Part shown: positions 5,666 to 43,494 of the stretch, in pieces | How the letters are laid out: each line of letters opens with the position of its first letter | Position numbering within the stretch: the stretch's first letter is position 1 | Assembly (NCBI GenBank): GCA_046590575.1 | Contig: JBKJUS010000107.1 | Location: forward strand, 9,934-73,933 | Origin: Mycobacteriales bacterium | GTDB lineage: Bacteria > Actinomycetota > Actinomycetes > BP-191 | Length of the DNA stretch: 64,000 nucleotides | Direction: 5' to 3' | Notes under the pieces: generated by a model | Database searches by the model: none | What the model was told of the DNA's origin: nothing | What the model saw: only the letters and a program-made list of their open reading frames with translations | Made by a program: the position numbers and the translations under genes

Positions 5666-5816
5666 TGCGTCCTCCTTTGGGGGAGACGATGTCTCCACAT
5701 ACTGCACGGCTGGGTGCAAACTGCACCTATTGTCCCGAATCGGGCACTCGGTTGTCAACCACGCGACTTCGCGGGCGCGGCGCGCCCAATCTGTGGCGCG
5801 CAGCCGACCGGTTACG

Positions 5817-8844: not shown

Positions 8845-8848
8845 GCGG

Positions 8849-9232: not shown

Positions 9233-9245
9233 CATCTGCGCCCTG

Positions 9246-10775: not shown

Positions 10776-10799
10776 CGGCGCAAGGGCATACTGGCCGCC

Positions 10800-11573: not shown

Positions 11574-11688
11574 CGGCGCCAGCACGCGAGCGCGCCGCTG
11601 GTATCCCTGTCCGCCTTGCTGGCACCAGTAGATGCCGTGCGCATATACTCGCGCCGGACTGCGCGGTGACCAGGTTGGTGGATGGCGG

Positions 11689-12069: not shown

Positions 12070-12105
12070 CTCGGCACCCCGCAGATTGCCTGCACTGCAG
12101 TGCCG

Positions 12106-14338: not shown

Positions 14339-14488
14339 GACCGGACCTCCACATGCTTGGCTGGCGATGACCCGCACTGGCGCGCACACTCTCACGAGAC
14401 CGTCTCATCGCACGGTGTCGCGGAAAGTTTGGCGCCGTGCCATCCTGCGGCTGAGGCGGGTGATGTGCAACCAAGGGAGCAGCTTCGA

Positions 14489-20354: not shown

Positions 20355-21209
20355 GTGGACCTAGACGAGGATCTGAGCAGTGACGTGCTCGAGCGCGCGA
20401 TGCCGGGTCGAGCGCTCCGCTGCTATCCAGCGATGCTCTCGACGGAGTCCGACGCGCTCGGCTGGGCGAGGTCCGGGGGGCCAGCCGGTGCCGTCGTTGT
20501 TGCGGGCTACCAGGCATCACCGAGGGGGCGCGCCGGACTGACCTGGGAGGTACGTCCAGGGCTCGACCTGGGCTTCTCGCTCGTGCTTCGGCCGACGCTG
20601 ACCAGTCAACGGGAGGGCTGGGTCTACTCCACCTCCCTCCTCGGCGTCTGTGACGTGCTGGGCCAGGACCTGACGCTCAGCTGGCCGGACGAGGTCTATC
20701 AGGGAACGCGCCGGGTGGCGGCCATCGGGGCCCATGTCGAGCTCGGTCCGGACGGCGTGGCCTGGGCGGTCGTCAATGTCCTGGTGCCAGACGTCTCTCC
20801 ACCTCGCGGACGGCTGCTGGCTGAGCTCGTCGGAGCCATCGAGGCGCGGGCCCTTGCCGACCCCGACGGAACGCTCGCCGACTACAACGCCCGATGCGAC
20901 ACCATCGGCCGCGCGGTCTGCGCTCGGCTCATCCCGATGGGCTCTGCCGGGCCACAGGTGCGCGGCACGGCAGTGACCACACTGGCGGACGGGGCGCTGG
21001 TCATCCTCACCGCGAAGGGCAACCGGGTCGCCGTACCGCCGCACAACCTCGGGCTCCTCGACGACCTGTCGGAGGCCGGGTTGGCTGCCTCGGCACTAGA
21101 CCTGAGATTCGAGCGGCTGCAGCCGGTCGATCTCCTCGATGAGCGCCCACCACAGGCCCCAGTCGACGTGGTCCATCCCCTCGCCGGTGAGCCCCTCGGC
21201 GATCTGTAG
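20355..21209 (+). CDS. biotin/lipoate protein ligase (BPL/LplA/BirA catalytic-domain) family protein
   Basis: QASPRGRAGLTWEVRPG is like the BirA GRGRRGRxW motif, and LTLSWPDEVYQG...AIGAHVELG resembles KWPNDL...GIGIN. The 3' end overlaps the convergent gene 21096..21791 by 114 nt, so one of the two ends is uncertain. Confidence 0.55.
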   Translation: MDLDEDLSSDVLERAMPGRALRCYPAMLSTESDALGWARSGGPAGAVVVAGYQASPRGRAGLTWEVRPGLDLGFSLVLRPTLTSQREGWVYSTSLLGVCDVLGQDLTLSWPDEVYQGTRRVAAIGAHVELGPDGVAWAVVNVLVPDVSPPRGRLLAELVGAIEARALADPDGTLADYNARCDTIGRAVCARLIPMGSAGPQVRGTAVTTLADGALVILTAKGNRVAVPPHNLGLLDDLSEAGLAASALDLRFERLQPVDLLDERPPQAPVDVVHPLAGEPLGDL

Positions 21210-21791
21210 GCGCAGCCGGTCGCGGAGGGCGAACGTCGTACCCCAGCGCCCGTCATCGTCGAGAGTGCGCAGCTCGTCGAGCAGCGCACGGAGGGTGACG
21301 ACCGCTGGGACCTCCTCGAGGCGGTCCCCCTCGACCAGCCCACGAAGCACAGTGGCGAGGCTCAGCAGGGGAGTGCGGCGCACCTCGGCCCGAACCAGCT
21401 CCAGCACCTCCGGCAGGGCGGCCTGGGCCAGCGGGGACAGCCGTTCGGCCAGCCGGCCGTTGACGCGGTCGTCGGCTGGCTCGACCTCGATCGCCACCGT
21501 GCGCTCCGGCAGCCGACCCAGGCCCGCGCAGACCTCGACGAGCAGGTCGATGGTGACGTAGCCGGTGCCGGCGTCGTTCATCGCGAGCTGCACCTCGGCG
21601 GGTGACAGGTGCAGATCGCGCACCCGGCGCCGGGTGACCGTCCCGGGCGGTAGCCCACGCGGAATGGCTCCGACCAGGATCAAGCCCTCCGGACACAGCT
21701 CCTCGAGGCGCTGTGCTACGGCAAGCGCGCCGTAGTGCAGCTCCTCGACCAGAGCGAGCGGCCCGAGGTCCTCGCCGGCGAGCATCTCCAC
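21096..21791 (-). CDS. hydrogenase-associated protein with hydrogenase-maturation-protease-like C-terminal-half motif
   Basis: It lies immediately downstream of the hydrogenase large subunit in the same operon. The segment LLVEVCAGLGRLPERTVAIEVEPADDRVNGRLAERLSPLAQAALPEV resembles the conserved C-terminal half of HybD/HupD endopeptidases (LGRLPERIVLFGIQP...LSPPV). The N-terminal half is atypical. Confidence 0.5.
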   Translation of the reverse strand: MEMLAGEDLGPLALVEELHYGALAVAQRLEELCPEGLILVGAIPRGLPPGTVTRRRVRDLHLSPAEVQLAMNDAGTGYVTIDLLVEVCAGLGRLPERTVAIEVEPADDRVNGRLAERLSPLAQAALPEVLELVRAEVRRTPLLSLATVLRGLVEGDRLEEVPAVVTLRALLDELRTLDDDGRWGTTFALRDRLRLQIAEGLTGEGMDHVDWGLWWALIEEIDRLQPLESQV

Positions 21792-21859
21792 CGCGACTCG
21801 ACCGAGGTCGAGGTCGCCCTGCAGCAGCTCGCCGACGCCGCCGACGAGGACCGACGGGC

Positions 21860-23761
21860 TCAGTCGGCGCCGCAGGAGCAGGTGTTGACCTCGCGCACGA
21901 CGGTGCCGTCACCGGTGTCGACGTGCGTCGTACACGGCATGCACGGGTCGAAGCTACGGATCGCCCGGAGCATGTCGATCGAGGTGAACTTGGACGGGTC
22001 GGAGACGTCTTCGATGATCGGCGTGTTCATCACGGCCTCCTCGTACGGACCTGGCTGGTCCCACGGGTCGCGCGGCGACGCGTTGATCGTCGAGGGTGTG
22101 CAGATCTGGTAGTTGGTGATCTTGCCCTTGTCCATAACCATGTGGTGCGTGAGCCAGCCGCGGCCGGCCCCCCACCAGCCGACGCTGATCTGCTCGTCCT
22201 TGGGGATGTGCTTGTCCAGCTCGTCCGGGGGAATCGCGGCGACCTGACGCTCGCCGGACTTGAACAGCTTGTAGGCCTCCAGCAGGCTGATCAGGCCGAC
22301 GAGCTGCGAGAACACGTAGTGGTAGGCCCGACCGCGGTTGCGCTCCAGGGCGTTCCAGTGCTCCGGGATGTGCCACTCGACCTCGAGCTCCGGCGTCAGA
22401 CCCTTGGGGATGAACATCCGCAGGCTGTGGCCGGTGGACTCGATGTAGTCGTTCTGCGGGATCTTCTGCGCCATGGCGGTCATGAACAGCCGGGCGTAGC
22501 AGCCGGCCTCCACCACCTCGCGGTCCCATCGCGGCGCGCAGGACCAGGTGTACTTGTCCTTCCAGGACCGCTCACCCGGCTTGGGGATCGTCACCTTGTT
22601 CCAGGGGTGGTACGGGCTGATCGGGTTGCCGAGCGGGTCGGTGGGGTAGCGGTCGCCCTTCCACTGCTCGTAGTAGGAGTGCTCGATGAACTCCTCCCAC
22701 CCGATGTTGATGTCAGTCAGGCGCGTGGTGCGCAGCTTGCCGTCGATGATGACGCCGGGAGTGGAGAAGCGCTTCTCACCCCACTCGTTGCAGTTCTCAT
22801 ACGTCGCGTCGTAGGCGTAGGGGTCGTCCCAGAAGCCCGGGTCGATGAGGTTGACCTTGCGGGCACCGACCTGGGTGTAGCGCTCGTCGCACTCGTAGAA
22901 GAAGTCCGGGATGTCGTTCCACACCGCGAGCATCCGCTGGGCGTAGTCGAAGAGCCGACCCAGCTTGGCCTGGTACTCGTTCAGGGTCTGCAGCGTGACG
23001 GTGGACGAAACGCCGCCGGGCACCACGGTCTGCGGGTGCGGGTACTTGCCGGCGAGAATCACGAACATCTCACGGGAGAAACGGGTGAACTCCAGGCCCT
23101 CGCGGTAGAGCGACCCGGTGAGCGGGTTGAGGGCGACCATCAGGTCGGCCATGGTCTTGAAGCCGTGCTGACGCACCCCCGGGCAGAGCCACTTCTCGGC
23201 CTTTGGCCAGAGCTCGGGGTTGACCGCCTTGATGACGGCCTCGGAGTAGTCAGGTCCGCAGAGCAGGTAGAGGTGCAGCGGGTTGTCGTAGCCCATCTCC
23301 GCGGCTTCCTGCATGTTGCGGATGACGGTGCCCAGTGGCGGCGGCTTAAGGCCCATCGCCATCTCGATGGCATAGGCCGCGGCGTGCGCGTGCACTCCGC
23401 CGCACACCCCGCACGCGCGGGATGATACGAAGATCGCGTCCCGCGGGTCACGGCCCATGAGGATGATCTCGTAGCCGCGGAAGAGCGTGGCCTGCGAGTG
23501 CGCGTCCAGATAGCGCTTGTTCTTCATGTCCGCGGTGACGTGGATGGCCAGCGCGCCGGCGACCCGGGTGACCGGGTCCATGTTGAGGTCCTTGATGTGG
23601 CCGTTGCGGGCCATCAGCTTCTGGATCTGCGCCTCGCGGTCGGCATCGGTCATGTCGACGGAAGGCTTGGCGATCTCTACGTCGTACGGATTGGGAATGC
23701 CTCCGCGCAAGGACGCCGAGCCGCTGGAGTCGAAGTCAACGAGCAGGTTCTTGAAGCACAT
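21860..23761 (-). CDS. [NiFe]-hydrogenase large subunit (Cys-type; no Tat partner; actinobacterial uptake type, group 1h/2a-like)
   Basis: The L1 motif is RACGVCGGVHAHAA. The C-terminal motif DPCMPCTTH is followed by a cleavable extension. Length 633 aa. The RBS gaaggagc is 9 nt upstream of the ATG. Confidence 0.9.
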   Translation of the reverse strand: MCFKNLLVDFDSSGSASLRGGIPNPYDVEIAKPSVDMTDADREAQIQKLMARNGHIKDLNMDPVTRVAGALAIHVTADMKNKRYLDAHSQATLFRGYEIILMGRDPRDAIFVSSRACGVCGGVHAHAAAYAIEMAMGLKPPPLGTVIRNMQEAAEMGYDNPLHLYLLCGPDYSEAVIKAVNPELWPKAEKWLCPGVRQHGFKTMADLMVALNPLTGSLYREGLEFTRFSREMFVILAGKYPHPQTVVPGGVSSTVTLQTLNEYQAKLGRLFDYAQRMLAVWNDIPDFFYECDERYTQVGARKVNLIDPGFWDDPYAYDATYENCNEWGEKRFSTPGVIIDGKLRTTRLTDINIGWEEFIEHSYYEQWKGDRYPTDPLGNPISPYHPWNKVTIPKPGERSWKDKYTWSCAPRWDREVVEAGCYARLFMTAMAQKIPQNDYIESTGHSLRMFIPKGLTPELEVEWHIPEHWNALERNRGRAYHYVFSQLVGLISLLEAYKLFKSGERQVAAIPPDELDKHIPKDEQISVGWWGAGRGWLTHHMVMDKGKITNYQICTPSTINASPRDPWDQPGPYEEAVMNTPIIEDVSDPSKFTSIDMLRAIRSFDPCMPCTTHVDTGDGTVVREVNTCSCGAD

Positions 23762-23789
23762 GGGCTAAGGGCTCCTTCGTGCGCTGGGA

Positions 23790-25154
23790 TCAGCGCTTAC
23801 CGGACGTCTTGGCTTGCTCGCTACGGATCTCCTTCGCCGACTTCACGCCGGCCTTGCCCCACTCGTTGCCGCGCTTCTTGCTGGTGTCGGTGCTGCGACG
23901 GAGTACGTCGTAGAACTTGTGCGTGATGTCGTTGAACTTGTTGTCTTCCACGGTCTCTCGAGACCAGCCACTGGAGGTCTCTCCGAGCTCATCCCAGCGC
24001 CGCTCGCGGTTGAGGTTGTTGTTGCTGAACTTGCGCAGGGGCCGAACGATGCCGCCCATCATCCGGGCCATCGTCGAGGAGACAAGCGAGCCGGGAGCAC
24101 TCTTGTAGAACGGCGTGAACTTGTCCGGGAAGCCGGGCATCGTGCAGCCGATGCAGGCAGCGCCGGCGTTCATGCAGCCGCCGACGTGGTTGATCGCGCC
24201 GCGAGAGGCGATGTTGCAGTTGACGACCGGCCCCCAGCACCCGATCTCGACGAGGCACTCTGGGTCGCCGAACTCCTTGGCGAAGGAGCCTTCCTCGTAG
24301 TACGCGCCGCGGACGCAGTGCCGGTGCACGGTCTCGCCGAACAGCCAGGCCGGCCGGCCGAGTGCGTCGAACTCCGGCAGCGGACCGAAGCCCTGCAGGA
24401 AGTAGCAGATCGCGGCGATCGTCTCGGTGATGTTGTCGCCGACCGGAGAGCAGCCGGGGATGTTGACCACCGGGACGCCGAACGAGCTGCGGTAGTCCTT
24501 GCCGAGGAAGTCCATGAGTCCCATGGACCCGGTCATGTTGCCCTCGGCGGCGGGGATGCCACCCCAGGTGGCGCACGTGCCGACCGCGATCGCGGCGGCT
24601 GCACCCGGGGCTAGGCGGGCGATCCACTCGCAGGTCGACACCTGGCGCAGTTCGCCATTGTGTCCCCACGGCTCTTCGCCTTGGCCGGAGAAGTAACCGC
24701 CGGGCGTGACATCCATCGCGAGCGTCTCGTCAGAGGCAGAGCCCTCGAGGATGATGACGTAGGGCGCGTTGAGCGTGCCCTTGATCGCGTCCTCGTGCGC
24801 TCGGAGGTAGTGCGCTCCGGACTCGATGTTGAGCACCGGGTGGTGGAGGATCACCCGGGGCAGCCCGGGGTGCGCGCCGAGCAGCAGGCCCTCGACCGAC
24901 GGGGAGGTGGCGCCGGTGGCGGCCACCGAGCAGCCGTCGCAGCTCATGCCGGCGAACCAGAACGCGTGCACAGCCTCAAGCGGGCCCAGCCGGCTACGCG
25001 GGCTCGCCTTCGCGATCGGCTCGAGGTAGGCCTCCATGGTGACCCGCGCGGGCATCCCGAAGTCGCCGAGCTCCTCGAAGTCGTGCCACTGGTCGACCGG
25101 ACCGAGCCGGTCGAGTAGCTCCTCGGCCGGCGTGCGACGGACCGTCACTGCCAT
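23790..25154 (-). CDS. [NiFe]-hydrogenase small subunit without twin-arginine signal, long C-terminal tail
   Basis: FWFAGMSCDGCSVA (CxxC), IPGCSP, and distal Fe-S Cys clusters CLVEIGCWGPVVNC...GGCMNAGAACIGC. There is no RRxFxK motif. Length 454 aa. Confidence 0.9.
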   Translation of the reverse strand: MAVTVRRTPAEELLDRLGPVDQWHDFEELGDFGMPARVTMEAYLEPIAKASPRSRLGPLEAVHAFWFAGMSCDGCSVAATGATSPSVEGLLLGAHPGLPRVILHHPVLNIESGAHYLRAHEDAIKGTLNAPYVIILEGSASDETLAMDVTPGGYFSGQGEEPWGHNGELRQVSTCEWIARLAPGAAAAIAVGTCATWGGIPAAEGNMTGSMGLMDFLGKDYRSSFGVPVVNIPGCSPVGDNITETIAAICYFLQGFGPLPEFDALGRPAWLFGETVHRHCVRGAYYEEGSFAKEFGDPECLVEIGCWGPVVNCNIASRGAINHVGGCMNAGAACIGCTMPGFPDKFTPFYKSAPGSLVSSTMARMMGGIVRPLRKFSNNNLNRERRWDELGETSSGWSRETVEDNKFNDITHKFYDVLRRSTDTSKKRGNEWGKAGVKSAKEIRSEQAKTSGKR

Positions 25155-25309
25155 GGGCGGAACCCCTTACGTATGTGACCGCTGCACCTACTGGCGAGGA
25201 CCTTACAACGCGCGGCTCGCATTGTGAACGTAGGTGGACTATCCGTTTCGACCGAACATGAGCGACACTGAGTGCCGGACACATCCACTGACCTCGGACG
25301 GAGTTTTGC

Positions 25310-25582
25310 ATGTGCCTCGGCATCCCCGGTGAGATCGTCGAGCTCGGGCCGGCAGACGAGCTCGCCATGGTCAATGTGGGTGGCGTGCGCCGGCAGGTGA
25401 ACGTTGGACTGCTGACGGGTGAGGACGCCGTCGGCGTCGGCGACTGGGTGCTGATCCACGTCGGCTTCGCGATGAGCAAGATCGACGAGGCCGAGGCCGC
25501 GTCGACATTGGAGTTCCTCCACAGCCTTGGGGCGACCTTCGACGAAGAGCTGGCCGCCCTGATTGAGAGCCAGATCGAATGA
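25310..25582 (+). CDS. hypC: hydrogenase maturation factor HypC/HupF
   Basis: Begins MCLGIPGEIVEL, the invariant MC(L/I)(G/A)(I/V)P start. Length 90 aa. Confidence 0.9.
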   Translation: MCLGIPGEIVELGPADELAMVNVGGVRRQVNVGLLTGEDAVGVGDWVLIHVGFAMSKIDEAEAASTLEFLHSLGATFDEELAALIESQIE

Positions 25583-26712
25583 AGTACGTCGACGACTTCA
25601 GGGACACCGGGACCGCGCGGGTGCTGCAAGCCCAGATCGCCAAGCTGGTTGATCCCGTCCGTCACTACAAAGTCATGGAGGTGTGCGGAGGACACACGCA
25701 CACCATCTACAAGCACGGCCTCGAAGATTTCCTGCCCGACAACGTCGAGCTGGTTCATGGCCCGGGCTGCCCGGTGTGCGTCATCCCGATGGGTCGGGTC
25801 GATGACGCCATCGCTCTCGCGCTGCGACCTGAGGTCACCCTCTGCTGCTTCGGCGACATGATCCGGGTGCCCGGCGGTGACGGCAGCCTGCTCGACGCCA
25901 AGGCGAGGGGGGCCGACGTACGCGTCGTGTACTCACCGCTTGACGCGCTGCGTATCGCCCGGTCCGAGCCGGACCGGCAGGTCGTCTTCCTCGCCATCGG
26001 GTTCGAGACCACGGCCCCGTCCACCGCGATGACTCTGCTGCGGGCCAGAGCGGAGGGCATCGGCAACTTCTCAGTGTTCTGCAACCACGTGACGATCGTT
26101 CCGCCGCTCAGAGCGATCCTCGAGTCGCCGGACCTGCGCCTGGACGGCTTTCTCGGCCCGGGCCACGTCGCCGTCGTCGTCGGCTGTCGGCCACTGGAGT
26201 TCGTGGCCACCGAGTGGCACAAGCCGATCGTCGTCACGGGTTTCGAGCCGTTGGACATCCTGCAGGCCGTGTACCTGGTCCTCAAGCAGGTGGCTGAAGG
26301 GCGTGCCGAGCTGGAGAACCAGTATTCGCGCGTGGTGCCCTACGCCGGCAACCCCCGGGCGCTGCAGGTGATGTCCGAGGTGTTCGAGCTGCGCCCGCAC
26401 TTCGAGTGGCGGGGGTTGGGCTTCATTGCGCGGTCGGCGCTGGCGCTGTCCGAGGTGTGGGCGGACTTCGACGCGGAGCAGCGCTTCGGCGTGCCCGGTG
26501 TGCGGGTGGCCGATCCGAAGGCCTGCCAGTGCGGCGAGGTGCTCAAGGGCGTCCTGAAGCCCTGGGAGTGCAAGGTGTTCGGCACGGCGTGCACTCCGGA
26601 GACGCCGATCGGCACCTGCATGGTGTCCTCCGAGGGAGCGTGCGCGGCGTACTACAACTTCGGCCGCTTCGCCCGCGAACGGATGCCCGTGCACGTCGAG
26701 ATCGGGCGATGA
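25579..26712 (+). CDS. hypD: hydrogenase maturation factor HypD
   Basis: Contains CGGHTH, GPGCPVC and IGFETTAP motifs. Length 377 aa. The start overlaps the hypC stop. Confidence 0.9.
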   Translation: MKYVDDFRDTGTARVLQAQIAKLVDPVRHYKVMEVCGGHTHTIYKHGLEDFLPDNVELVHGPGCPVCVIPMGRVDDAIALALRPEVTLCCFGDMIRVPGGDGSLLDAKARGADVRVVYSPLDALRIARSEPDRQVVFLAIGFETTAPSTAMTLLRARAEGIGNFSVFCNHVTIVPPLRAILESPDLRLDGFLGPGHVAVVVGCRPLEFVATEWHKPIVVTGFEPLDILQAVYLVLKQVAEGRAELENQYSRVVPYAGNPRALQVMSEVFELRPHFEWRGLGFIARSALALSEVWADFDAEQRFGVPGVRVADPKACQCGEVLKGVLKPWECKVFGTACTPETPIGTCMVSSEGACAAYYNFGRFARERMPVHVEIGR

Positions 26713-27782
26713 GCCGGACCGAGTCCGAGGTGCAGGCCGGCATCGAGCGCGCTCGTCGGGCGCGGCCCCGATTGCGTGACGAGCGCATCACGATGGCGCA
26801 CGGCGCGGGAGGCAAGGCCAGCGCGACGCTGATCGAGGCCCTCTTCCTGCCGGCGTTGCACAATCCTTCGCTCGCCATGCTGTCCGATGCTGGGCTGGTC
26901 GATGTGCCGGGCGGCACGCTGGCGATGTCGACCGACGCGTACGTCGTACGCCCGCTGCGTTTCCCAGGTGGCTCCATCGGCGAGCTCGCCGTCAATGGCA
27001 CGATCAACGACTTGGCTGTCTCTGGAGCCCGAGCACTCGCACTCTCGCTGGCCTTCGTGCTCGAAGAGGGCTTGGACATGGAGGTGCTCAGGGCAGAGGT
27101 GGCTGCCGTTGCTAGCGCCGCAGCAGCCGCGGGCGTGCCGGTTATCACCGGGGACACCAAGGTGGTCGAGCGCGGAAAGGCCGATGGGATGTACGTCGTC
27201 ACCACGGGTGTCGGCGTAGTCGAGCTCGCCGGCCTCGGTGCCACGGCGATGCGCCCGGGTGACAAGGTCCTCCTCTCCGGGGCGGTCGGTGACCACGGGA
27301 TCGCCATCCTGCTGGCCCGCGGTGACCTCGGTCTCGAGGCCGACGTCGAGTCCGACACGAAGCCACTGTGGTCGGCGGTGAAGACGCTGGGGGAGGCGGC
27401 TGGCTCGGGGTTGCGAGTCATGCGCGACGCGACCCGGGGCGGGGTTGCGACAGTCCTCAACGAGCTGGCCCAGGCGGCTGACCTCGGCGTCGTGGTCGAC
27501 GAAGGTGCCGTGCCCGTGCACACCGCCGTACGTGGGGCGTGCGAGCTGCTCGGCCTTGATCCACTCTACGTCGCCAACGAGGGCTTGTTGGTGGCTGTCG
27601 TCGCGCCCGGGGTCGCCGATGAGGCTCTGGCGGCACTGCAGGCGATGCCCCGCGGAGGGGAGGCAGCTGTGGTCGGAGAGATCGCCGCTGAGCCGCCTGG
27701 GATGGTGCTGGTCCGCACTGAGGTTGGTGGGCACCGAATCATGGACATGCTGATCGGCGACCCGCTGCCCCGGATCTGCTGA
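26709..27782 (+). CDS. hypE: hydrogenase maturation factor HypE (carbamoyl dehydratase)
   Basis: AIR-synthase-like fold ending in PRIC. The ATG overlaps the hypD stop (ATGA). The track ORF 26406..27782 has a spurious N-terminal extension. Confidence 0.9.
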   Translation: MSRTESEVQAGIERARRARPRLRDERITMAHGAGGKASATLIEALFLPALHNPSLAMLSDAGLVDVPGGTLAMSTDAYVVRPLRFPGGSIGELAVNGTINDLAVSGARALALSLAFVLEEGLDMEVLRAEVAAVASAAAAAGVPVITGDTKVVERGKADGMYVVTTGVGVVELAGLGATAMRPGDKVLLSGAVGDHGIAILLARGDLGLEADVESDTKPLWSAVKTLGEAAGSGLRVMRDATRGGVATVLNELAQAADLGVVVDEGAVPVHTAVRGACELLGLDPLYVANEGLLVAVVAPGVADEALAALQAMPRGGEAAVVGEIAAEPPGMVLVRTEVGGHRIMDMLIGDPLPRIC

Positions 27783-33158: not shown

Positions 33159-34964
33159 CTACGGCAGGGGGCCAGGAGCAGCCACCACCACGCGCTGGGA
33201 GTCGTCAATGCGGCGGGTGAGACCGAGTCGGTCGAGGTGCTCGAGCAGCGGGACCGCAACCCGACGTGTGGTGCCCAGCGCTTGGCGCGCCTGGCTCATG
33301 GAGAAGGGCTGAGGAAGCGCTGCAAGCGTCGGCAGTGCCGATTCGACGGCGTCCGGGAGAAGGTAGATCCCGTCCGTCAGCGCCAGCAACATCCCGTGCC
33401 GCACCGCCGTCGCAAGAACGGTTGCGGTCAATCCGAGTGAGTCGAGATCCGCGGCGGCCGGCGCGGCGTACGGCGTCTCCGCAAGACGTCGGGCAACCTG
33501 GCTCAGCGCGTCGCTTTGGCCGTCAGTGAAGCCAGGCGCGGCGCCGGCCCGGCGTACCAAGCCGCCGCTCGACTCCAGAGTCGGCACATCGGCGGCCAAC
33601 GCCGAAAGCAGCCTGGCGTCAGGGGCACCGACGGCTTGCCGTGCTGCCTCTGTCGGCAGACCACCGCGCAGCGGGTGCCGGTGTTCGTCATCTGCCACCG
33701 CGGCCACCAGTAAGTGCTGCCATTGCTGCCATTGCGCGGCGGAGATCAACCAGTTCCCCACCTCCACCGTGTCCTCGGGGGCTGGGTCGTCCTGGTGGAT
33801 CACTCCCCACGCCGCGAGCTCTTCCCGGCGGACCGCACCGCGTCGGCGCACCTCGCCAGCCGGGTCCGGTGCGCCGCTCATGCCCTGCAGAGACGTGGCG
33901 CGCCTCGCCGCCCCGCCGCGCCGTGACAGCGGCTCCGGCGCGGCGTCGAGAACGACCACTCCGGCGACCACCCGCTGCTCTCCTGGGTCACGCAGCAGGG
34001 CCCGATCGCCGGGCTGAAGCGGTAGTGCCGCTGTGAGGTGCAGCCGGGCGGTGTCATCGCCGAGTCGGCGTACGTCGACGGCCACAGCGGCGGATCCGAC
34101 GTGCATCAGCAGGGTGGCCGGCAAGCGGGCCGAGCCTTCCGACCCAGCGTCCAGCCGCACGTCGACCAGGTCGGTGGTTCGCCAGCCGCCGACGGTCACC
34201 AGCGCATTGCCCCGGCGTACGTCGGAGACATCGACACCTCGCAGGTTGACCGCGACGCGAGCTACGGCCTCGACCTGGTCGGCATGACGTTTGAGGCTCT
34301 CCAGCCCGCGGACCCGTACCTGGAGGCCCTGCGGGGAGATCTGCAGCGTGTCTCCCACGCGCAGGGTTCCCGCGCCGAGCGTGCCGGTCACCACCGTGCC
34401 GCTGCCCCGGATGGTGAACGCCCGGTCGACCCACAAGCGAACGCGCGCAGCAGGGTCCGGCTCCGGGAGATCACCTACTAGACGATCGAGCGCACTCCGC
34501 AGGTCGTCGACACCTGCACCGGTGACTCCGCTCACCGCTACCGCTTCGACATCACCGAGAGCCGTGGCCCGGAGGTGCTCCAACGCTTCCGCCATGGCCG
34601 GGCCGGGGCTGGCGAGGTCGCAGCGGGTGATCGCGAGCACGCCATGCCGGACCTGAAGTGCGTCCAGCGCTGCCAAGTGCTCGACCGACTGCCGACTCCA
34701 ACCTTCGTCAGCAGCCACGACGAAGAGGACCGCCGGCGCCGGCCCGACGCCGGCGAGCATGTTGGGCACGAAGCGCTGGTGCCCCGGAACGTCGACGAAG
34801 GCGATCTCCACTCCGGACGGCAACGTGGTCCAGCCGAATCCGAGGTCGATCGTCATGCCCCGCCGGCGTTCCTCCGCCCAGCGGTCAGGCTCCATGCCGG
34901 TGAGCGCGCGGACCAACGTCGACTTGCCGTGATCCACATGGCCTGCTGTCGCGACGACGTGCAA
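33159..34964 (-). CDS. selB: selenocysteine-specific translation elongation factor SelB
   Basis: MHVVATAGHVDHGKSTLVRALTGMEPDRWAEERRRGMTIDLGF...FVDVPGHQRF is collinear with E. coli SelB (GHVDHGKTTL...RGMTIDLGY...DVPGHEKF). Length 601 aa with a long C-terminal SECIS-binding extension. Confidence 0.9.
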   Translation of the reverse strand: MHVVATAGHVDHGKSTLVRALTGMEPDRWAEERRRGMTIDLGFGWTTLPSGVEIAFVDVPGHQRFVPNMLAGVGPAPAVLFVVAADEGWSRQSVEHLAALDALQVRHGVLAITRCDLASPGPAMAEALEHLRATALGDVEAVAVSGVTGAGVDDLRSALDRLVGDLPEPDPAARVRLWVDRAFTIRGSGTVVTGTLGAGTLRVGDTLQISPQGLQVRVRGLESLKRHADQVEAVARVAVNLRGVDVSDVRRGNALVTVGGWRTTDLVDVRLDAGSEGSARLPATLLMHVGSAAVAVDVRRLGDDTARLHLTAALPLQPGDRALLRDPGEQRVVAGVVVLDAAPEPLSRRGGAARRATSLQGMSGAPDPAGEVRRRGAVRREELAAWGVIHQDDPAPEDTVEVGNWLISAAQWQQWQHLLVAAVADDEHRHPLRGGLPTEAARQAVGAPDARLLSALAADVPTLESSGGLVRRAGAAPGFTDGQSDALSQVARRLAETPYAAPAAADLDSLGLTATVLATAVRHGMLLALTDGIYLLPDAVESALPTLAALPQPFSMSQARQALGTTRRVAVPLLEHLDRLGLTRRIDDSQRVVVAAPGPLP

Positions 34965-34967
34965 ACG

Positions 34968-36269
34968 TCAGCCCGCCGCTCCGGCAACAGCCAACACCGC
35001 GTCGCAGAGCTCGGCATCACGCGCAGCGGGAACGCAGCGGAGGTCGAGCAGACAACGGTCGCGCTCGACCCGGCCGACGACACAGGGGTCGCCGAGCCGC
35101 AGCGGCTCGGCAAAGCCAGGAGGCAGGGTGACCGCGGCGCCGGGCAGCACGAGACCGGGCGCGCCGCCGCCCCCGACCGCACCGTCGGAGTCCTCCACGG
35201 TGGCGTCGACACCGCGGCTCACCAAGTCGGCGACCATGGCCGCTGCCCGGAGACGCAACCCATCCTGGCTCTCCGCGAGCGCCGATTGGGTCGGCGTAGC
35301 CGGCCCGCGGATAGTTGCTTCGAGAGCTGCGAGGGTGAGCTTGTCGACACGCAGCGCGCGGGCCAGCGGATGCCGTCGTAGTCGTTCAACCAGGTCCGCG
35401 CGGCCGAGGATCAGACCGGCCTGCGGTCCGCCGAGCAGCTTGTCGCCGCTGCACGTCACCAAGCCAGCACCGGCCTCAAGCGCAGAGGTCGCATCCGGCT
35501 CCGCCGGCAGGATGGGATCGGGGTGGAGCAACCCAGAGCCGATGTCGACGACGAGCGGTGGGCCGAGCGCGGCGAGCGCAGCCACGCTGACCGAGCTGGT
35601 GTAGCCCACGACGGCAAAGTTCGACGGGTGAATCTTCACGATGCACCCGGTGGATTCGTTGACCGCGTCGGCGTAGTCCTCAGCCGAGGTCCGGTTGGTA
35701 GTGCCCACCTCACGGATCCGCGCTCCGGTCGAGCAGATCAGCTCCGGCAGGCGGAACCCGTCCCCGATCTCCACCAGCTCACCCCGGCTGACGACAACCT
35801 CGCGTTCGGCAGCCAGGGCGGTGACCGCAAGGACAAGGGCTGCTGCTCCGTTGTTGACGGTGAGGGCTGCCTCTGCGGCGGGCACTGCCGAGAGCAGCGC
35901 TGACGTCGTGCCGCGTCCCCGCGACGCGCGACGTCCGGTGGCCACGTCGTACTCAAGGTCGACGTAGCCCGCGGCCATCGTGACGGCGGCCACCGCCTGG
36001 TCCGAGAGAGCGGCCCGGCCAAGATTGGTGTGCAGCACGACGCCGGTTGCGTTCAGCACCGGGCGCATCCGCACCGGCACGCCGGCCAGGGCGCGGGCGA
36101 CCTCGTCGGCGACCTGATCGGGTGCGATCTCTCCGGCGCGGGCGCGGGCCACGGTATCGATCACGACCCGTTTTGCTTCCGTCCGGTTCACGCGCTCGAG
36201 CGCGGCGAGCACGCGGGGCTCGGCGAGCACGGAGTCGACACGTGGCAGCTGACGCCTGCTGTCTGTCAT
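34968..36269 (-). CDS. selA: L-seryl-tRNA(Sec) selenium transferase SelA
   Basis: LPRVDSVL, NATGVVLHTNLGRA and the PLP-fold region match SelA. The stop abuts the selB start, and the start is the ATG at 36269. Confidence 0.9.
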   Translation of the reverse strand: MTDSRRQLPRVDSVLAEPRVLAALERVNRTEAKRVVIDTVARARAGEIAPDQVADEVARALAGVPVRMRPVLNATGVVLHTNLGRAALSDQAVAAVTMAAGYVDLEYDVATGRRASRGRGTTSALLSAVPAAEAALTVNNGAAALVLAVTALAAEREVVVSRGELVEIGDGFRLPELICSTGARIREVGTTNRTSAEDYADAVNESTGCIVKIHPSNFAVVGYTSSVSVAALAALGPPLVVDIGSGLLHPDPILPAEPDATSALEAGAGLVTCSGDKLLGGPQAGLILGRADLVERLRRHPLARALRVDKLTLAALEATIRGPATPTQSALAESQDGLRLRAAAMVADLVSRGVDATVEDSDGAVGGGGAPGLVLPGAAVTLPPGFAEPLRLGDPCVVGRVERDRCLLDLRCVPAARDAELCDAVLAVAGAAG

Positions 36270-36567
36270 GAGCTCCCTCGGCCACACCGGTTTTGAAGCC
36301 TGACCTTACCGATTTCGGCGACCCTGCTGAGCGGCGCAGCCTTGGCCGTGACGGCGGAACTCGGACAGGAAACCTCCACCGTTGGGCGGACGCTTCCGCG
36401 CCGGGCGCGATGCATCCTGTGCTGATGCCGTCCTCGGGACTCTCGCCAGTCACCCTGTCCGCATCCACGCTCCGGACGCATCCATCGGAGACCCCGTGAA
36501 GCTTCCTGTTCGTTCCGCACTCGTCGTCGCCGCGGCTTCCGCTCTGGTGTTCCGTAGTCAGAGCATG

Positions 36568-36663
36568 TGGCGGAGGCGGACGGGAATCGAACCCGCCTGA
36601 CCGAGATCCTCGGCCACACCGGTTTTGAAGACCGGGAGGGCCACCAGGCACCTGTACGCCTCC
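36568..36663 (-). tRNA. selC: tRNA-Sec (selC), anticodon UCA, 96 nt, CCA encoded
   Basis: The reverse complement reads GGAGGCGTACAGGTGCCTGGTGGCCCTCCCGGTCTTCAAAACCGGTGTGGCCGAGGATCTCGGTCAGGCGGGTTCGATTCCCGTCCGCCTCCGCCA. The anticodon loop CUUCAAA carries UCA, there is a long variable arm, the GTTCGATTC T-loop is present, and it has an extended acceptor stem. It lies between selA and selD. Confidence 0.85.
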
Positions 36664-36725
36664 AGCGCAGGAGCCTATTGCAGCGGCGCGACACACATCG
36701 TGGCCATCGACATAGCATCGCGGCT

Positions 36726-37739
36726 ATGACGGTGACGGAGAGCGCGAAAACGTATCGGCTGACGCAGTTTGCCCACGGGGGTGGCTGTGCCTGCAAGATC
36801 CCGCCCGGCGAGCTCGAGCAGATCGTCGCCGGTCTGGTCGGACTTGATCCGTCCGACGGGACCGCGGAGCTGCTCGTCGGTCTGGACGGGGGTGACGACG
36901 CTGCAGCGGTGCGCATCGATGCGAAGACCGCGGTGCTGTCGACGGCCGACTTCTTCACCCCCGTCGTCGACGACGCCTACGACTGGGGCCGGATCGCTGC
37001 CGCCAACGCGTTGTCGGACATCTACGCGATGGGCGGCACCCCTCTGCTCGCCATCAACTTGCTCGCGTGGCCGCGAGACGTCCTGCCCCTGGAGCTGGCG
37101 ACCGAAGTGCTCAGAGGCGGTTTGGATGTTGCCCGCGAGGCACGCTGCCACGTGGCCGGCGGACACAGCATCGACGATCCCGAGCCGAAGTACGGCATGG
37201 CCGTCACCGGGGTCGCCCATCCCGATCGCCTGTTCCGCAATGACGCGGGACGCCCGGGCGACGTGCTCTCGTTGACCAAGCCGCTGGGCATCGGCGTGCT
37301 TAACAGCCGGCACAAGCAGACGGGGGAGGTTTTTCCCCAGGCCATCGACGCTATGACTTCTTTGAACCGCGATGCGGCAGGTCACGCGCTGGCTGCCGGT
37401 GTCCGTTGCGCGACGGATGTGACTGGCTTCGGCCTGCTGGGCCATCTGTACAAACTCGCGCGCGCCAGTGGAGTCACCGCCGAGATCGACTCCAGCGCTG
37501 TGCCCTATCTCGACGGCGCAGTGGCCGCGGCGCGCGACGGCTTTGTTAGTGGTGGGACGCGCCGCAACCTCGACTGGGTCGACCCGCACGTCGACTTCGG
37601 CACCATGGATGAGGTGCAGCGGCTGCTCTTGGCCGACGCGCAGACGTCAGGGGGCCTCCTCGTCGCCGGTGAGGTGCCGGGCGCGCCGATCATCGGACGC
37701 CTGGTCGCGCGCGACGGAGTGACCGTTCGGGTCCGGTGA
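36726..37739 (+). CDS. selD: selenide, water dikinase SelD (selenophosphate synthetase), Cys-type
   Basis: MTVTESAKTYRLTQFAHGGGCACKIPPG... is collinear with E. coli SelD (RLTQYSHGAGCGCKISP). The active-site residue is Cys, not Sec. Confidence 0.9.
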   Translation: MTVTESAKTYRLTQFAHGGGCACKIPPGELEQIVAGLVGLDPSDGTAELLVGLDGGDDAAAVRIDAKTAVLSTADFFTPVVDDAYDWGRIAAANALSDIYAMGGTPLLAINLLAWPRDVLPLELATEVLRGGLDVAREARCHVAGGHSIDDPEPKYGMAVTGVAHPDRLFRNDAGRPGDVLSLTKPLGIGVLNSRHKQTGEVFPQAIDAMTSLNRDAAGHALAAGVRCATDVTGFGLLGHLYKLARASGVTAEIDSSAVPYLDGAVAAARDGFVSGGTRRNLDWVDPHVDFGTMDEVQRLLLADAQTSGGLLVAGEVPGAPIIGRLVARDGVTVRVR

Positions 37740-37858
37740 AAGGGCGGACGACGTCGACGCGAAGATTCCCGGTGATCAAGACTTGTCTCGACCGCCGCCG
37801 AAGGCGATAGTGCCTATATGTGATCGGCCCATAGGGCCGCCGTTCGCGAGGAGCCGCC

Positions 37859-38107
37859 GTGGTGCTGTGGTGGATCGGCAACGCCGTCCTACTGCTGGTT
37901 GTGGTCCCGCTCGTCGTCATTCTTGCGGACCGACTGCTCAAGCCAGTGCGCGAGATCCGCGCTTACGCCGACGACATCCTCGACCACGGGGTCAGCCTGA
38001 CCAGCGCCCTCGACTCCGTGCCTAAGCTGGTGACGACCACTGAGCTGACGGGCGTCGCTAAGGGCCTCGTCGGTCGCTACGGTGCGGCGCTGCAAAAACT
38101 GCTGTGA
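37859..38107 (+). CDS. small single-pass membrane protein, member 1 of a 5-gene paralogous family
   Basis: 82 aa with an N-terminal TM (WWIGNAVLLLVVVPLVVILA) and a ~50-aa helical tail similar to the following ORFs. Confidence 0.5.
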   Translation: MVLWWIGNAVLLLVVVPLVVILADRLLKPVREIRAYADDILDHGVSLTSALDSVPKLVTTTELTGVAKGLVGRYGAALQKLL

Positions 38108-38150
38108 ACAGCCCCGGCGCCACCATGACAGCCACCCCGGAAGGGACACG

Positions 38151-38429
38151 ATGAGCGCGGCCGCGATTACCACCCTGGTCGGCGTCGGACTGCTCGCCGG
38201 CGCACTGGTGCTCTACCTCAGCATCGTCGCCTACCACCTGTCGAAGGTGAACTTCGCTCTCGGCACCGTCGTCATTGGGGTGCGGGCGATTGCCAACCAG
38301 ACCCAGCCGGTCGAGGCCGTCGTCGGCAGCATCGCCGGCGACGTGGCCGCAATCGACGACGCGCTCAAGGCCTTGGTAGTGCTCGCGACCACTCCGAAGC
38401 CGGGCGTTCGCGCCCGGGCATCCCGCTGA
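38151..38429 (+). CDS. small single-pass membrane protein, family member 2
   Basis: The internal ATG has the RBS aagggacacg. The sequence is MSAAAITTLVGVGLLAGALVLYLSIVAY... followed by a helical tail. Confidence 0.5.
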   Translation: MSAAAITTLVGVGLLAGALVLYLSIVAYHLSKVNFALGTVVIGVRAIANQTQPVEAVVGSIAGDVAAIDDALKALVVLATTPKPGVRARASR

Positions 38430-38454
38430 CCGAACGCTGACGAGAGGACGCCGC

Positions 38455-38631
38455 ATGGCTTACAAGTGGGGTTGACGGGATTCCGACCACACCTGCAGGT
38501 GGCAGGCCAAGGGCGAGACCGAAGAAGAGTTGTTGGCGAAGATCGCTGAGCACGTGAAGAAGAAGCACGCCGTTCACACCGTGTCGGACACCATCGTCAA
38601 CTTCGTGGTTCAGGACGTGAAGAAGACGTGA
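38455..38631 (+). CDS. DUF1059-like mini-protein with in-frame TGA at codon 7 (38473..38475); candidate selenoprotein
   Basis: The RBS gagagga is 6 nt upstream of the ATG. The translation is MAYKWG-U-RDSDHTCRWQAKGETEEELLAKIAEHVKKKHAVHTVSDTIVNFVVQDVKKT. It resembles the DUF1059 layout (Mxx-aromatic-xCxD...C...TEEEL...HAKxxHG) with the TGA at the first conserved Cys. A GC hairpin cacc-tgca-ggtg starts about 14 nt after the TGA. Not in the ORF track because it is under the size cutoff. Confidence 0.5.
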
Positions 38632-38652
38632 GCTCGCCGAAGGAGAGTTCGG

Positions 38653-38922
38653 ATGGATGACCTTGTTGCGGTCAGCCTCAGGGGCTGGTACATCGGATTC
38701 GCCATCGCCGGTGTCGCGATCGCGGTGGTCGTCGTGCTCGTCGCGATCATCATGACGATGGCTCGTCGGATCGCGATCCAGGCGGCGGCCATCACCGAGG
38801 GGCTCGACCAGGCGCGGGTGCACACGCTTGCGCTGTGGGATGTCGCGAAGGTCAACGAAGGCCTGACGAGCATCGTGGGTAGCGCCGCAGCCGCGCGAGG
38901 GGTCTTGGAGGCAAAGCTGTGA
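38653..38922 (+). CDS. small single-pass membrane protein, family member 3
   Basis: 89 aa, TM at IGFAIAGVAIAVVVVLVAIIM. The stop overlaps the next start. Confidence 0.5.
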   Translation: MDDLVAVSLRGWYIGFAIAGVAIAVVVVLVAIIMTMARRIAIQAAAITEGLDQARVHTLALWDVAKVNEGLTSIVGSAAAARGVLEAKL

Positions 38923-39200
38923 ACGTCGCGCTGGCCGACAACGAGATCACCATCTGGTGGGTGACCCTTGGCCTTGGTCTTACCGTCGCGCTCGTGGTCA
39001 TCATCCTGCTCTCACTGCTGACGGGTCTGGTGCGCGACATCGACCACAACGTCGACGACGTGTGGCAGACCGCGACCCGCGTCGCCCGTAACACCACGAC
39101 GGTGTGGATACTTGGTCAGACAGCCGGCCTATCGGCGGCGTTGCGCGACGAGGTCGCCCAGCATGCCGCTCTCTTCGAGGCTAACAAGAGGCGACGATGA
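38919..39200 (+). CDS. small single-pass membrane protein, family member 4
   Basis: 93 aa, TM at IWWVTLGLGLTVALVVIILLSLL. ATGA overlap with the next gene. Confidence 0.5.
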   Translation: MNVALADNEITIWWVTLGLGLTVALVVIILLSLLTGLVRDIDHNVDDVWQTATRVARNTTTVWILGQTAGLSAALRDEVAQHAALFEANKRRR

Positions 39201-39451
39201 CACTGCGCATCACCTTGTCGGTGCTGGAGATCGTTCTGGTCGTCGCGATCCTCGCCTTCTTCCTCATCCGCATCTCTCGCCTGCTCCGGCGCATCTCGAT
39301 CACGCTCGCAAGGGTGACGTGGGGGGTGCGCACCGTGGAGAAGCAGTGCTTCCAGATCGGCCCGGCTGCCGACCGCATCAACGCCAATCTGGCCACTGCT
39401 GCGGCCGGTCTCGAGAGCGCCGCAGTGATGGCCGAGCGTCTCGGTCGCTGA
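39197..39451 (+). CDS. small single-pass membrane protein, family member 5
   Basis: 84 aa, TM at LSVLEIVLVVAILAFFLI. Confidence 0.5.
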   Translation: MTLRITLSVLEIVLVVAILAFFLIRISRLLRRISITLARVTWGVRTVEKQCFQIGPAADRINANLATAAAGLESAAVMAERLGR

Positions 39452-39455
39452 TGCC

Positions 39456-40589
39456 ATGACCGATGGGGACGCGGAGCCAAGCCGCCCCCCCGACGATGAC
39501 GACGTCGCACTTTCCTTCATCCGAGGTGAGTCGGGGAGGTCATCGTCGGACCTCTCGATCGCCGATGACGTCTTGCTCGCCGCAGGGAAGGTGGCGGCGG
39601 CCTTGCGAGTCGGAGCAGCGACGGTGTTCGTGCGCGCGGACCTGCCCGATGAGTTGGCTCATGCGAAGCTTGCTGTCGAGCGGGCGCTGAGCACAGATGG
39701 TCTGCTTCCGCTCGATCAGAACACCGCCCTCGCCTTGCCGGTGGCTCGACGCCTCGCCAGCGTGGAAGCAGCGAGTTGGGACCTCTGGGGCCGGGACCTG
39801 GCCGACGTCTTCGCGTCGCTGCAGGCGCAGGAACCGGCGGGGGTGGCGACCGCGGGCCCGCCGACCGACGACGTCTCGCTGCCCGAGACGGCCGAGGCGA
39901 GTCAGGTCCCGGTCGAGGAGGCGCCACCCGCGATCCTCGCGGATGAGGAGCTGGCTCGGGACTCGCCGGCCGGGGGTCGCACTCTGGTGGTCGCTGGGAT
40001 CGCGGGTGTCCTCCTGCTGGCGGCGCTGGGTGGCACGTTGACCTATGCACTGCGGGAGCGCGACGCAGCACGCGACGGCGCCAACCCCGGCCCCACGGCC
40101 AGCTCAGGCACAGGCGCGTCCACTGCGCCGGAGGCGCTGGTCGACTACACCGACCCGCGTGGGCGATTCACGATGAGTTACCCCGCCAGTTGGCAGCAGG
40201 TGCAGTCAGACGACACCGACATCGCCCTGCTGCTGCTGGCCGGCGGCAGCGACTCGATGCTCGTTCGCCTCGTCCAGTTGCAGCGAGCCATCGACCCTGC
40301 GGATATCGCTGATGTGAAGTCGGTGACTGATGTCATCGTGCAAACCTCGACGGTCCGGGTTCTGGAGGAGAAGCCGATCACCCTGGGGCCAGGAGTGCAG
40401 GGCTACTACTACCTCTACACGTTCACTGACCCAGTCACGAAGCAGGAGGGGGTGCACTCGCACTTCTTCCTCTTCGAAGGCGCGGTGATGCACACGCTGG
40501 TCTTCCAGGCCCTGCCAGGGGATGGCTTCGGAGCCCTCGCTCCTGACTTCGACCGGATCGCTCTGAGCTACCGCCCCGCGAAGACCTGA
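39456..40589 (+). CDS. membrane-anchored hypothetical protein with extracytoplasmic C-terminal domain
   Basis: 377 aa with an acidic N-terminus, a central TM (LVVAGIAGVLLLAALGGTLTYAL) and a C-terminal globular domain. The start is 5 nt after the previous stop. Confidence 0.5.
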   Translation: MTDGDAEPSRPPDDDDVALSFIRGESGRSSSDLSIADDVLLAAGKVAAALRVGAATVFVRADLPDELAHAKLAVERALSTDGLLPLDQNTALALPVARRLASVEAASWDLWGRDLADVFASLQAQEPAGVATAGPPTDDVSLPETAEASQVPVEEAPPAILADEELARDSPAGGRTLVVAGIAGVLLLAALGGTLTYALRERDAARDGANPGPTASSGTGASTAPEALVDYTDPRGRFTMSYPASWQQVQSDDTDIALLLLAGGSDSMLVRLVQLQRAIDPADIADVKSVTDVIVQTSTVRVLEEKPITLGPGVQGYYYLYTFTDPVTKQEGVHSHFFLFEGAVMHTLVFQALPGDGFGALAPDFDRIALSYRPAKT

Positions 40590-42751: not shown

Positions 42752-43092
42752 CGGGACCGGGAGCGGACTAGCGGGCACGACGCGCTCGCCCGGGGCGTGG
42801 GCAGCGCCCTCGACGCCCGTAGCGCTGTCGTTCTCCATCTGCTCCGCGGCCTCGGCGGCGTCTGCCTTGTCCTCTGCCGTCGGCGGCAGGTTGTCCATCT
42901 GCAGGGGGGGCGGCGGTGGGCTAGGTGTGGAATCTGATTCGGTCACAGGTCCTCCATAGCGTGCCAGTTGGCGGGAGTCTGCCCATTCGCGGTGGCTGAC
43001 AACCGCCGGGTATCCTCGCAATCCCGCACGGGGTAGGTCCGCTCGGGAAATGTCCGCAGGCGCGACCAAAAAGCTGAGGGAGTACCTAGGCC

Positions 43093-43494
43093 ATGGCTGT
43101 GATGCAAGTGGAGTTGGTGTCCGCTGAGCGGCGCCTTTGGTCTGGCGAGGCCGAGATGGTCGTGGCGCGCACGACCGAAGGCGAGATCGGCATCTTGCCC
43201 GGTCACGCCCCGGTGCTCGGCGAGTTGGCCAGCGGGCTGCTGCGCGTGATCCAGGCGGGCGGCTCGGAGGTCGTCGCGGCTATCCACGGCGGCTTCCTGT
43301 CCGTGTCGGCGACCGGCGTGTCGGTGCTTGCTGACATCGCCGAACTTGCTGATGACATCGACCTGGCGCGTGCGCAGGAGGCCTACGACCGGGCCCAGCA
43401 TTCGATCTCAGGCGACGACGACCCTGAGGCGAAGGCCGCCCTGGACCGCGCCGCCACCCGGCTCAAGGCCAAGGGCGTTGCCGTCCCGGCGTAG
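43093..43494 (+). CDS. atpC: F0F1 ATP synthase epsilon subunit
   Basis: [45 protein letters not shown] is the canonical epsilon N-terminus. The RBS is gagggagta. No atpD lies upstream in this window. Confidence 0.85.

Follow-up and report, generated by a model that had tools for sequence, protein, structure and literature searches.

A contiguous selenocysteine-decoding gene cluster in an uncultured Mycobacteriales-like actinobacterium and two CooC-type NTPase genes as its probable clients

The stretch of DNA analyzed here, which we call the window, is 64,000 nucleotides (nt) long, has a G+C content of about 68% throughout and belongs to a high-GC uncultured Mycobacteriales-like actinobacterium. 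Between positions 33159 and 37739 it carries selA, selB, selC and selD, so that all four genes for selenocysteine (Sec) decoding are present, intact and contiguous, with their catalytic motifs conserved. Open reading frames (ORFs) were listed mechanically, and this interval yielded three of them, at 33159-34964 and 34968-36287 on the minus strand and at 36567-37739 on the plus strand. The genes were assigned as follows.

33159-34964, minus strand: selB, Sec-specific elongation factor, 601 amino acids (TIGR00475, Pfam, alignment to 5lzb)
34968-36269, minus strand: selA, L-seryl-tRNA(Sec) selenium transferase, 433 amino acids, ATG at 36269 (TIGR00474, Pfam, alignment to 8uzw)
36568-36663, minus strand: selC, tRNA-Sec with anticodon UCA, 96 nt, CCA end encoded (ARAGORN, Rfam)
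36726-37739, plus strand: selD, selenide water dikinase, 337 amino acids, cysteine (Cys)-type (TIGR00476, NF002098, alignment to 3u0o)

An earlier reading made from the letters of the DNA (the sequence-only reading) had recognized SelB, SelA and SelD by collinear matches to the Escherichia coli proteins, and this was borne out, as the three proteins gave near end-to-end alignments to the solved E. coli proteins and all of them exceeded the curated NCBIfam equivalog cut-offs. SelA scored 412 bits with TIGR00474 (cut-off 268), carried the Pfam domains PF03841 and Se-cys_synth_N (PF12390) and aligned with E. coli SelA (8uzw) at E=4e-77, the motif of the pyridoxal phosphate (PLP)-binding lysine, SGDKLLGGPQAG, being conserved; SelA thus has what is expected of a PLP-dependent Sec synthase, a catalytic lysine and, at its N-terminus, a domain for tRNA binding. 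The selA ORF extends upstream to 36287, and the ATG at 36269, which has GAGGGAG before it and from which the translation is 100% identical to a 433-amino-acid protein on record (P0121), is most likely the true start. SelB scored 276 bits with TIGR00475 (cut-off 242), and its residues 3-587 of 601 aligned with E. coli SelB (5lzb) at E=8e-59. Its N-terminus reads HVVATAGHVDHGKS, with the GTPase G1 motif AGHVDHGKS conserved, and the Pfam domains GTP_EFTU, GTP_EFTU_D2, Beta-barrel_SelB and SelB-wing_3 (the last at 547-590, E=6e-16) describe a GTPase of the EF-Tu type whose C-terminus is extended by a winged helix. The selB start codon is a TTG lying only 3 nt past the selA stop (junction TGA-CGT-TTG), and this short distance suggests that selA and selB may be translationally coupled. 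SelD scored 394 bits with TIGR00476 (cut-off 125) and 357 bits with NF002098 (cut-off 299) in NCBIfam, showed the Pfam domains AIRS and AIRS_C and aligned with E. coli SelD (3u0o) at E=2e-75, with HGGGCACKIPP opposite HGAGCGCKISP. The N-terminal Cys/Sec-x-x-Lys motif is therefore present as GCACK, where E. coli has GCGCK, and the description of SelD as Cys-type, made earlier, agrees with the HGGGCACK read in the protein. Its start codon is the ATG at 36726, inside the longer ORF 36567-37739.

The only tRNA called by ARAGORN in the whole window was a tRNA-SeC with anticodon tca, on the minus strand at the place given above, and Rfam agreed with it (RF01852, 78.6 bits, E=1.7e-14; gathering score 47). 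At minimum free energy (MFE) the gene folds into a cloverleaf (-50.2 kcal/mol, z=-3.3) whose D stem has 6 base pairs (bp) and a loop of 4 nt and whose variable arm has 8 bp. These, along with the UCA anticodon and the 13-bp acceptor/T stack that is the hallmark of tRNA-Sec, complete the features expected of such a tRNA, and the 96-nt UCA tRNA with a long variable arm, which had been noticed between selA and selD, was hence seen by ARAGORN, by Rfam and in the fold. Of the two outcomes that the sequence-only reading had named as refuting it, a missing tRNA-SeC call and protein scores under the family thresholds, neither occurred. We further aligned the gene of the window with 10 genes from related loci, giving 11 actinobacterial sequences (L-numbers here and below denote related loci from genome and metagenome collections). 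In this alignment 95% of the cells form standard pairs of the cloverleaf and 14/32 pairs are changed on both sides; none of 500 shuffles matched the observed pairing, and registers slid along the alignment gave 40-55%. Across the related actinobacterial loci the tRNA-Sec is 90% identical on average.

The tRNA-Sec, selA and selB all lie on the minus strand and selD is divergent from them, and the same order, selD leftwards followed by tRNA-Sec, selA and selB rightwards, was found in at least 12 related loci. The closest relative in a SelA scan was L001, a Mycobacteriales metagenome-assembled genome (MAG), with identities of 78% for SelA, 90.5% for SelD and 75.6% for SelB, followed by L017 (SelA 72%) and by L038 and L039 (71%). 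Judged by gene content and order, the layout is the usual actinobacterial sel cluster, a known system and as a toolkit of low novelty; the Sec trait has been documented in many Actinobacteria (PMC1794560, PMC5029168).

The sequence-only reading had stated that SelD and the hydrogenase large subunit are Cys-type, so that the Sec clients must be other genes, and it had counted three in-frame TGAs in the window. The first statement held: the large subunit of the [NiFe]-hydrogenase (21860-23761, minus strand) ends in DPCMPCTTH, and two genes for CooC-like nucleoside triphosphatases (NTPases) have in-frame TGAs with Cys homologues and TGA-specific hairpins. As to the count, two TGAs (at 8419 and 11112) are supported and no credible third was found. 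The two genes and their hairpins, which resemble the selenocysteine insertion sequence (SECIS), are given below.

8104-8844, plus strand: client 1, CooC-type NTPase, in-frame TGA at 8419-8421 (PGCPUCG), recognized from Cys orthologues and the hairpin
8434-8451, plus strand: SECIS-like hairpin of client 1, CCCGAGC-AGUU-GCUCGGG, perfect 7 bp, -13.5 kcal/mol
10800-11573, plus strand: client 2, CooC-type NTPase, in-frame TGA at 11112-11114 (GSGUTGAAH), recognized from Cys and TGA orthologues and the hairpin
11130-11144, plus strand: hairpin of client 2, GUCACG-GUC-CGUGAC, downstream of the UGA

Both TGAs align with a Cys that is conserved in paralogues and orthologues. In client 1, where the context reads NPEPGCPUCGLSPEQLL and the hairpin begins 12 nt past the UGA, GCPCCG stands in each of the 12 full-length orthologues that were retrieved (63-76% identity), and the hairpin is not formed by the Cys orthologue L036. 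In client 2 the context reads AGSGUTGAAHVTVRD and full-length Cys orthologues read GSGCTG; the TGA, at codon 105, is kept in L040 (5665-6441), L041 (5665-6444) and L042 (2458-3246), which share the peptide context and the hairpin GUCAC(N)GU(N)(N)GUGAC 15 nt past the UGA, while at that place the Cys orthologue L043 has no hairpin (-0.6 kcal/mol). These three loci are public MAGs, in which gene callers have split the orthologue into a 104-amino-acid gene and a gene of 146-155 amino acids. The two genes thus combine an in-frame UGA, a SECIS-type hairpin within about 10-20 nt of it and Cys homologues, as is expected of Sec clients.

No NCBIfam model reached its cut-off with the client NTPases. Their best match among solved structures was in both cases the nickel chaperone CooC1 of Carboxydothermus hydrogenoformans (3kje; E=1e-14 for client 1 and 9e-21 for client 2), and both combine GKGGxGKT, a Walker A motif of the deviant type, with a CxC motif aligned with that of CooC1, with Sec at one Cys in each client: the U of client 1 stands opposite the second Cys of the CxC and that of client 2 opposite the first. 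The CxC motif of CooC1 binds the metal at the dimer interface. That the two in-frame TGAs are Sec codons, at which Sec would replace a metal-binding Cys, is well supported by these comparisons. The two clients belong to a set of seven paralogous genes for CooC/MinD-like NTPases at 7343-15268, two of which lack the CxC while five have it or its Sec variant. The set is flanked by genes for BNR-repeat proteins (820-7346) and by the [NiFe]-hydrogenase/hyp cluster (21096-27782); a similar hydrogenase neighborhood was found in L036, which holds a Cys orthologue of client 1, and similar BNR-repeat genes in L041, which holds a Sec orthologue of client 2. No carbon monoxide dehydrogenase gene was present among the window ORFs scanned. 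The paralogues are interleaved with a gene for a FixG_C/Cep192-domain protein, which also has a weak Matrixin match, and with one for a PadR regulator.

Selenoproteins of this kind were also sought in the literature. The 2016 table of selenoprotein families has no CooC, CbiA or P-loop NTPase entry (PMC5029168 Table S3), nothing on CooC, CbiA or P-loop NTPase selenoproteins turned up in the text of the BSepDB paper or in that of a review from 2026, and literature searches for Sec-containing CooC, MinD or ParA proteins gave nothing relevant. The nearest precedent is a group of metallochaperones, the CobW-related proteins (COG0523), in which a Cys-rich motif contains Sec and which had already been listed among the selenoproteins (PMC5029168).

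A third in-frame TGA was searched for by window scans with varied coding measures and motif filters, none of which gave a credible case. The TGAs at 38629, 46507, 59506, 34970 and 10773 were rejected as ordinary stops followed by an in-frame neighboring gene, the one at 27780 as the C-terminus of HypE (PRIC), and the remaining candidates were dismissed because their frames are non-coding.

We also examined the ends and the spacers of the sel genes, in which the following features were placed.

36270-36440, minus strand: selA leader, about 170 nt, conserved between the window and L001 (3815-4000 there) in a two-sequence alignment
36276-36298, minus strand: 23-nt exact copy of tRNA-Sec positions 34-56, a direct repeat with 100% identity to 36608-36630
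36368-36397, minus strand: hairpin in the selA leader, GGAAGCG-UCCGCC-CAAC-GGUGGA-G-GUUUCC, from the MFE fold, flagged as terminator-like
36497-36567, plus strand: 5' remnant of a gene for a secreted protein (VKLPVRSALVVAAASALVF...), cut off against the tRNA-Sec 3' end, recognized by homology to L001 gene starts
36672-36677, minus strand: putative -10 box of the tRNA-Sec promoter, TAGGCT, 8 nt 5' of the mature end (TANNNT pattern)
36713-36718, plus strand: putative -10 box TAGCAT, 7 nt 5' of the selD start codon (TAGCAT-N7-ATG/GTG pattern)

A TANNNT hexamer stands 7-8 nt 5' of the mature tRNA-Sec in 10/11 loci and appears, from this position, to serve as the -10 box of the selC promoter. Upstream of selD the arrangement TAGCAT-N7-ATG/GTG recurs in the window, L001 and L017, and the known leaderless promoters of actinobacteria suggest by analogy that the selD mRNA may be leaderless.

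The gap between selC and selA measures 298 nt in the window, about 1.7 kb in L001 and about 570 nt in L017, against 49-90 nt in L039 and most relatives. In L001 the spacer (2430-3800), as read from the DNA, apparently holds two tandem genes of about 0.7 kb on the opposite strand with hydrophobic, signal-like N-termini, and the starts of both are homologous to the remnant of the window, which keeps only the first 20 or so codons of such a gene, fused to the tRNA-Sec 3' end; the gene in the L017 spacer is a different one. Since the window has a gene remnant where L001 appears to carry tandem copies, the selC-selA spacer is a hotspot of insertion and deletion in the clade of the window, L001 and L017.

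The 23-nt repeat spans the anticodon loop, the 3' strand of the anticodon stem and the 5' strand of the variable arm, and lies 332 nt from the tRNA copy. It overlaps the Shine-Dalgarno region of selA, a part of which is supplied by its 3' end, and ends 6 nt before the ATG; the number of such matches expected by chance is 0.00. In L001 it is degraded, with a 4-nt gap and several substitutions, and L017, L039 and upwards of 10 further loci have no copy of it. We compared this arrangement with integration at an attachment (att)-type site. Inserted DNA is indeed bounded here by a directly repeated tRNA segment, and the insert, which L039 lacks, is not the same in the window, in L001 and in L017. 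No integrase-size ORF fits the 298-nt insert of the window, the insert of L001 is filled by the two genes of about 0.7 kb, and the repeat covers positions 34-56 only and does not reach the tRNA-Sec 3' end. Because an integrase is lacking and the repeat stops short of the tRNA 3' end, it is not a clean att-type duplication. The repeat is most likely, on the sequence comparison, a relic of an insertion or rearrangement which separated selC from selA, and this is supported by the insert being different in the window, L001 and L017 and by the truncated gene remnant in that of the window.

The leader hairpin has its counterpart in L001 (GAAAGCG-UCCGUC-GAAG-GGUGGA-G-GUUUUC), and the two differ by one double change (G-C to A-U) and one single change (C-G to U-G) that keep the pairing. 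Leader segments of 91 nt folded no better than shuffled sequences (z=0.0 and 0.44), and a 146-nt segment gave z=-2.5 in the window and z=0.09 for its L001 equivalent. The apical loops, CAAC in the window and GAAG in L001, are without GU, while those of the SECIS-like client hairpins are AGUU and GUC, so that the GU-containing loop resembling the organism's own SECIS, as expected of leader autoregulation of the E. coli selAB type, was not seen. A search of 36100-36800 with Rfam at E<=1 returned the tRNA only and no leader match. The hairpin was also considered as a terminator and rejected, as its U-rich tract belongs to the extended stem and L001 has no same-strand gene upstream to be terminated.

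Taken together, we read the locus as a functional canonical Sec-decoding cluster which serves at least two genes for CooC-type NTPases, the 23-nt repeat beside selA being most likely a relic, and we give this reading a probability of about 0.92. In such a system SelD would, by homology, convert selenide and ATP to selenophosphate, a seryl-tRNA synthetase encoded elsewhere would load serine on the tRNA-Sec, and SelA with its PLP would turn Ser-tRNA-Sec into Sec-tRNA-Sec. SelB-GTP would then bind Sec-tRNA-Sec together with the hairpin just 3' of the in-frame UGA and bring the tRNA to the ribosome. For expression, a leaderless selD mRNA would be made in the divergent direction, selC would be transcribed from its own -10 box, and selA and selB would be translated as a coupled pair behind the leader of about 170 nt. 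The sequence-only reading had held that the toolkit proves translation of UGA as Sec. The toolkit is complete and the capacity stands, but proof is too strong a word, gene content not being the same as Sec insertion.

Some observations weigh against the reading that we prefer. U8 and C85 are invariant in 11/11 tRNA-Sec sequences, which makes the eighth acceptor pair a U-C mismatch; in one reading of the stack the U8-C85 mismatch stands between 7 bp and a T stem of 5 bp, and in another G67:C85 makes it 7+6, where the textbook has 8+5. It totals 13 bp in either reading, and of the extended acceptor stem described earlier this stack is the part that stands, while its eighth pair does not. A scan with the sigma-70 consensus gave no promoter, and the TANNNT pattern is all that the promoter calls are based on; that scan does not cover high-GC actinobacterial promoters, and its null result was discounted. 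About 40 ORFs from all over the window were scanned with Pfam, and no formate dehydrogenase, glycine reductase or other classical selenoprotein gene was among them. Lastly, and against the repeat being a relic, the selA leader is more conserved than silent sites and the 23-nt repeat is still a perfect copy in the window.

The last observation is the ground of a different view, namely that the repeat and the conserved leader form a lineage-specific cis-regulatory element which couples translation of selA and selB to the Sec system. The fragment of tRNA-Sec would then be a mimic acting as a translational operator, either because a factor recognizing tRNA-Sec binds it or because an alternative pairing hides the Shine-Dalgarno sequence, and the cell would tune the synthesis of SelA and SelB to the state of its Sec system. 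An exact copy that sits on the ribosome-binding site is not a matter of chance, and the alignment of the leader with that of L001 (window 36255-36470, including the first 15 nt of selA) has a mean column identity of 85%, compared to 58% at the third positions of selA codons for identical amino acids in the same pair of genomes. The pairing of the leader hairpin has survived a double substitution, and there is a precedent in the autoregulation of selAB through an RNA mimic, which Thanbichler and Bock reportedly described in 2002; the logic would be similar to that of the SECIS-like element found in the selAB leader of E. coli. However, the leader is common to two genomes only, in one of which the repeat has decayed, and the loci further away do without the repeat. 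The 91-nt leader folds are no more stable than those of shuffled sequences, the loops do not contain the GU of the SECIS-like ones and Rfam does not know the leader. We regard such an element, and with it the operator made from a tRNA fragment, as unlikely and retain the repeat as a probable relic.

It may also be argued that the two TGAs are nonsense mutations in pseudogenes and that the toolkit serves classical clients elsewhere in the genome, formate dehydrogenase for example. A single base change makes TGA from TGC or TGT, and among the client 1 orthologues retrieved, Cys in 12/12, there was no second TGA form. Yet the two TGAs coincide precisely with the Cys residues of the CooC CxC that bind metal, and the coding signal runs on in frame for 140-150 codons past each of them. 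The client 2 TGA recurs at an identical codon in three further genomes, which have also kept the hairpin and the peptide past the TGA, and the hairpins are missing from the Cys orthologues, all of which makes loss of function by mutation quite improbable. That SelD works mainly for another selenium trait, tRNA 2-selenouridine or a selenium cofactor, is hardly credible, for although SelD is common to all three selenium traits (PMC1794560, PMC5029168), selD adjoins selC, selA and selB here as in 12 or more related loci, the window ORFs that were scanned with Pfam or NCBIfam yielded no homologue of selU/ybbB or yqeB/yqeC, and none of the Actinobacteria sequenced by 2006 was found to have the selenouridine trait (PMC1794560).

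The sel cluster on its own adds nothing new to Sec biology; its value lies in the enabling evidence which it gives for recoding in this genome. Because intact selA, selB, selC and selD lie nearby, the client TGAs can be annotated as Sec codons and the genes need not be treated as split pseudogenes. This points to a family of Sec-containing CooC-type NTPases which current annotation splits in two and in which Sec would occupy the metal-binding Cys position of a metallochaperone. The selC-selA spacer is, in addition, a small and datable example of insertion and decay beside a tRNA gene.

Further features were noted downstream of selD. Small ORFs without significant family match occupy 37835-40589 on the plus strand, among them the ORF 39456-40589, and an apparent DUF1059-like ORF lies at 38476-38628; a DUF1059 gene also adjoins the NTPase/hydrogenase cluster in L036. 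At 43090-43494 on the plus strand is atpC, for the epsilon subunit of ATP synthase, without a recognizable atpD directly upstream. The region of 41.2-43.0 kb shows no plus-strand coding signal, and in L043 the epsilon gene directly follows that of the beta subunit.

When compared with known systems, the cluster shares with the Sec system of E. coli the same four components, which are collinear with 8uzw, 5lzb and 3u0o and have matching catalytic motifs, a Cys-type SelD, and a tRNA whose anticodon is UCA, whose variable arm is long and whose acceptor/T stack has 13 bp. It differs in the eighth acceptor pair, which is C-G in E. coli and U-C here, and in its arrangement: in E. coli selAB, selC and selD are at separate loci, whereas here all four genes are contiguous and the selB TTG follows the selA stop by 3 nt. 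With other actinobacterial sel clusters (L039, the Cellulomonas MAG L005, the Marmoricola MAG L006, and L016) it has identical order and orientation and the TANNNT box in common, but there selA begins 49-90 nt past the tRNA, while here the distance of 298 nt accommodates the gene remnant, the leader and the 23-nt repeat. The SECIS-like element of the selAB leader in E. coli, through which SelB represses translation, is likewise structured, conserved and placed at the 5' side of selA near the ribosome-binding site; the selA leader of the window differs from it in that it resembles a part of the tRNA, has loops without GU and is confined to two genomes. As for the clients, the P-loop and the CxC motif of CooC1 (3kje) align in both, and the two differ from CooC1 in having Sec at one Cys of the CxC and in the position of their genes beside a [NiFe]-hydrogenase and BNR-repeat cluster.

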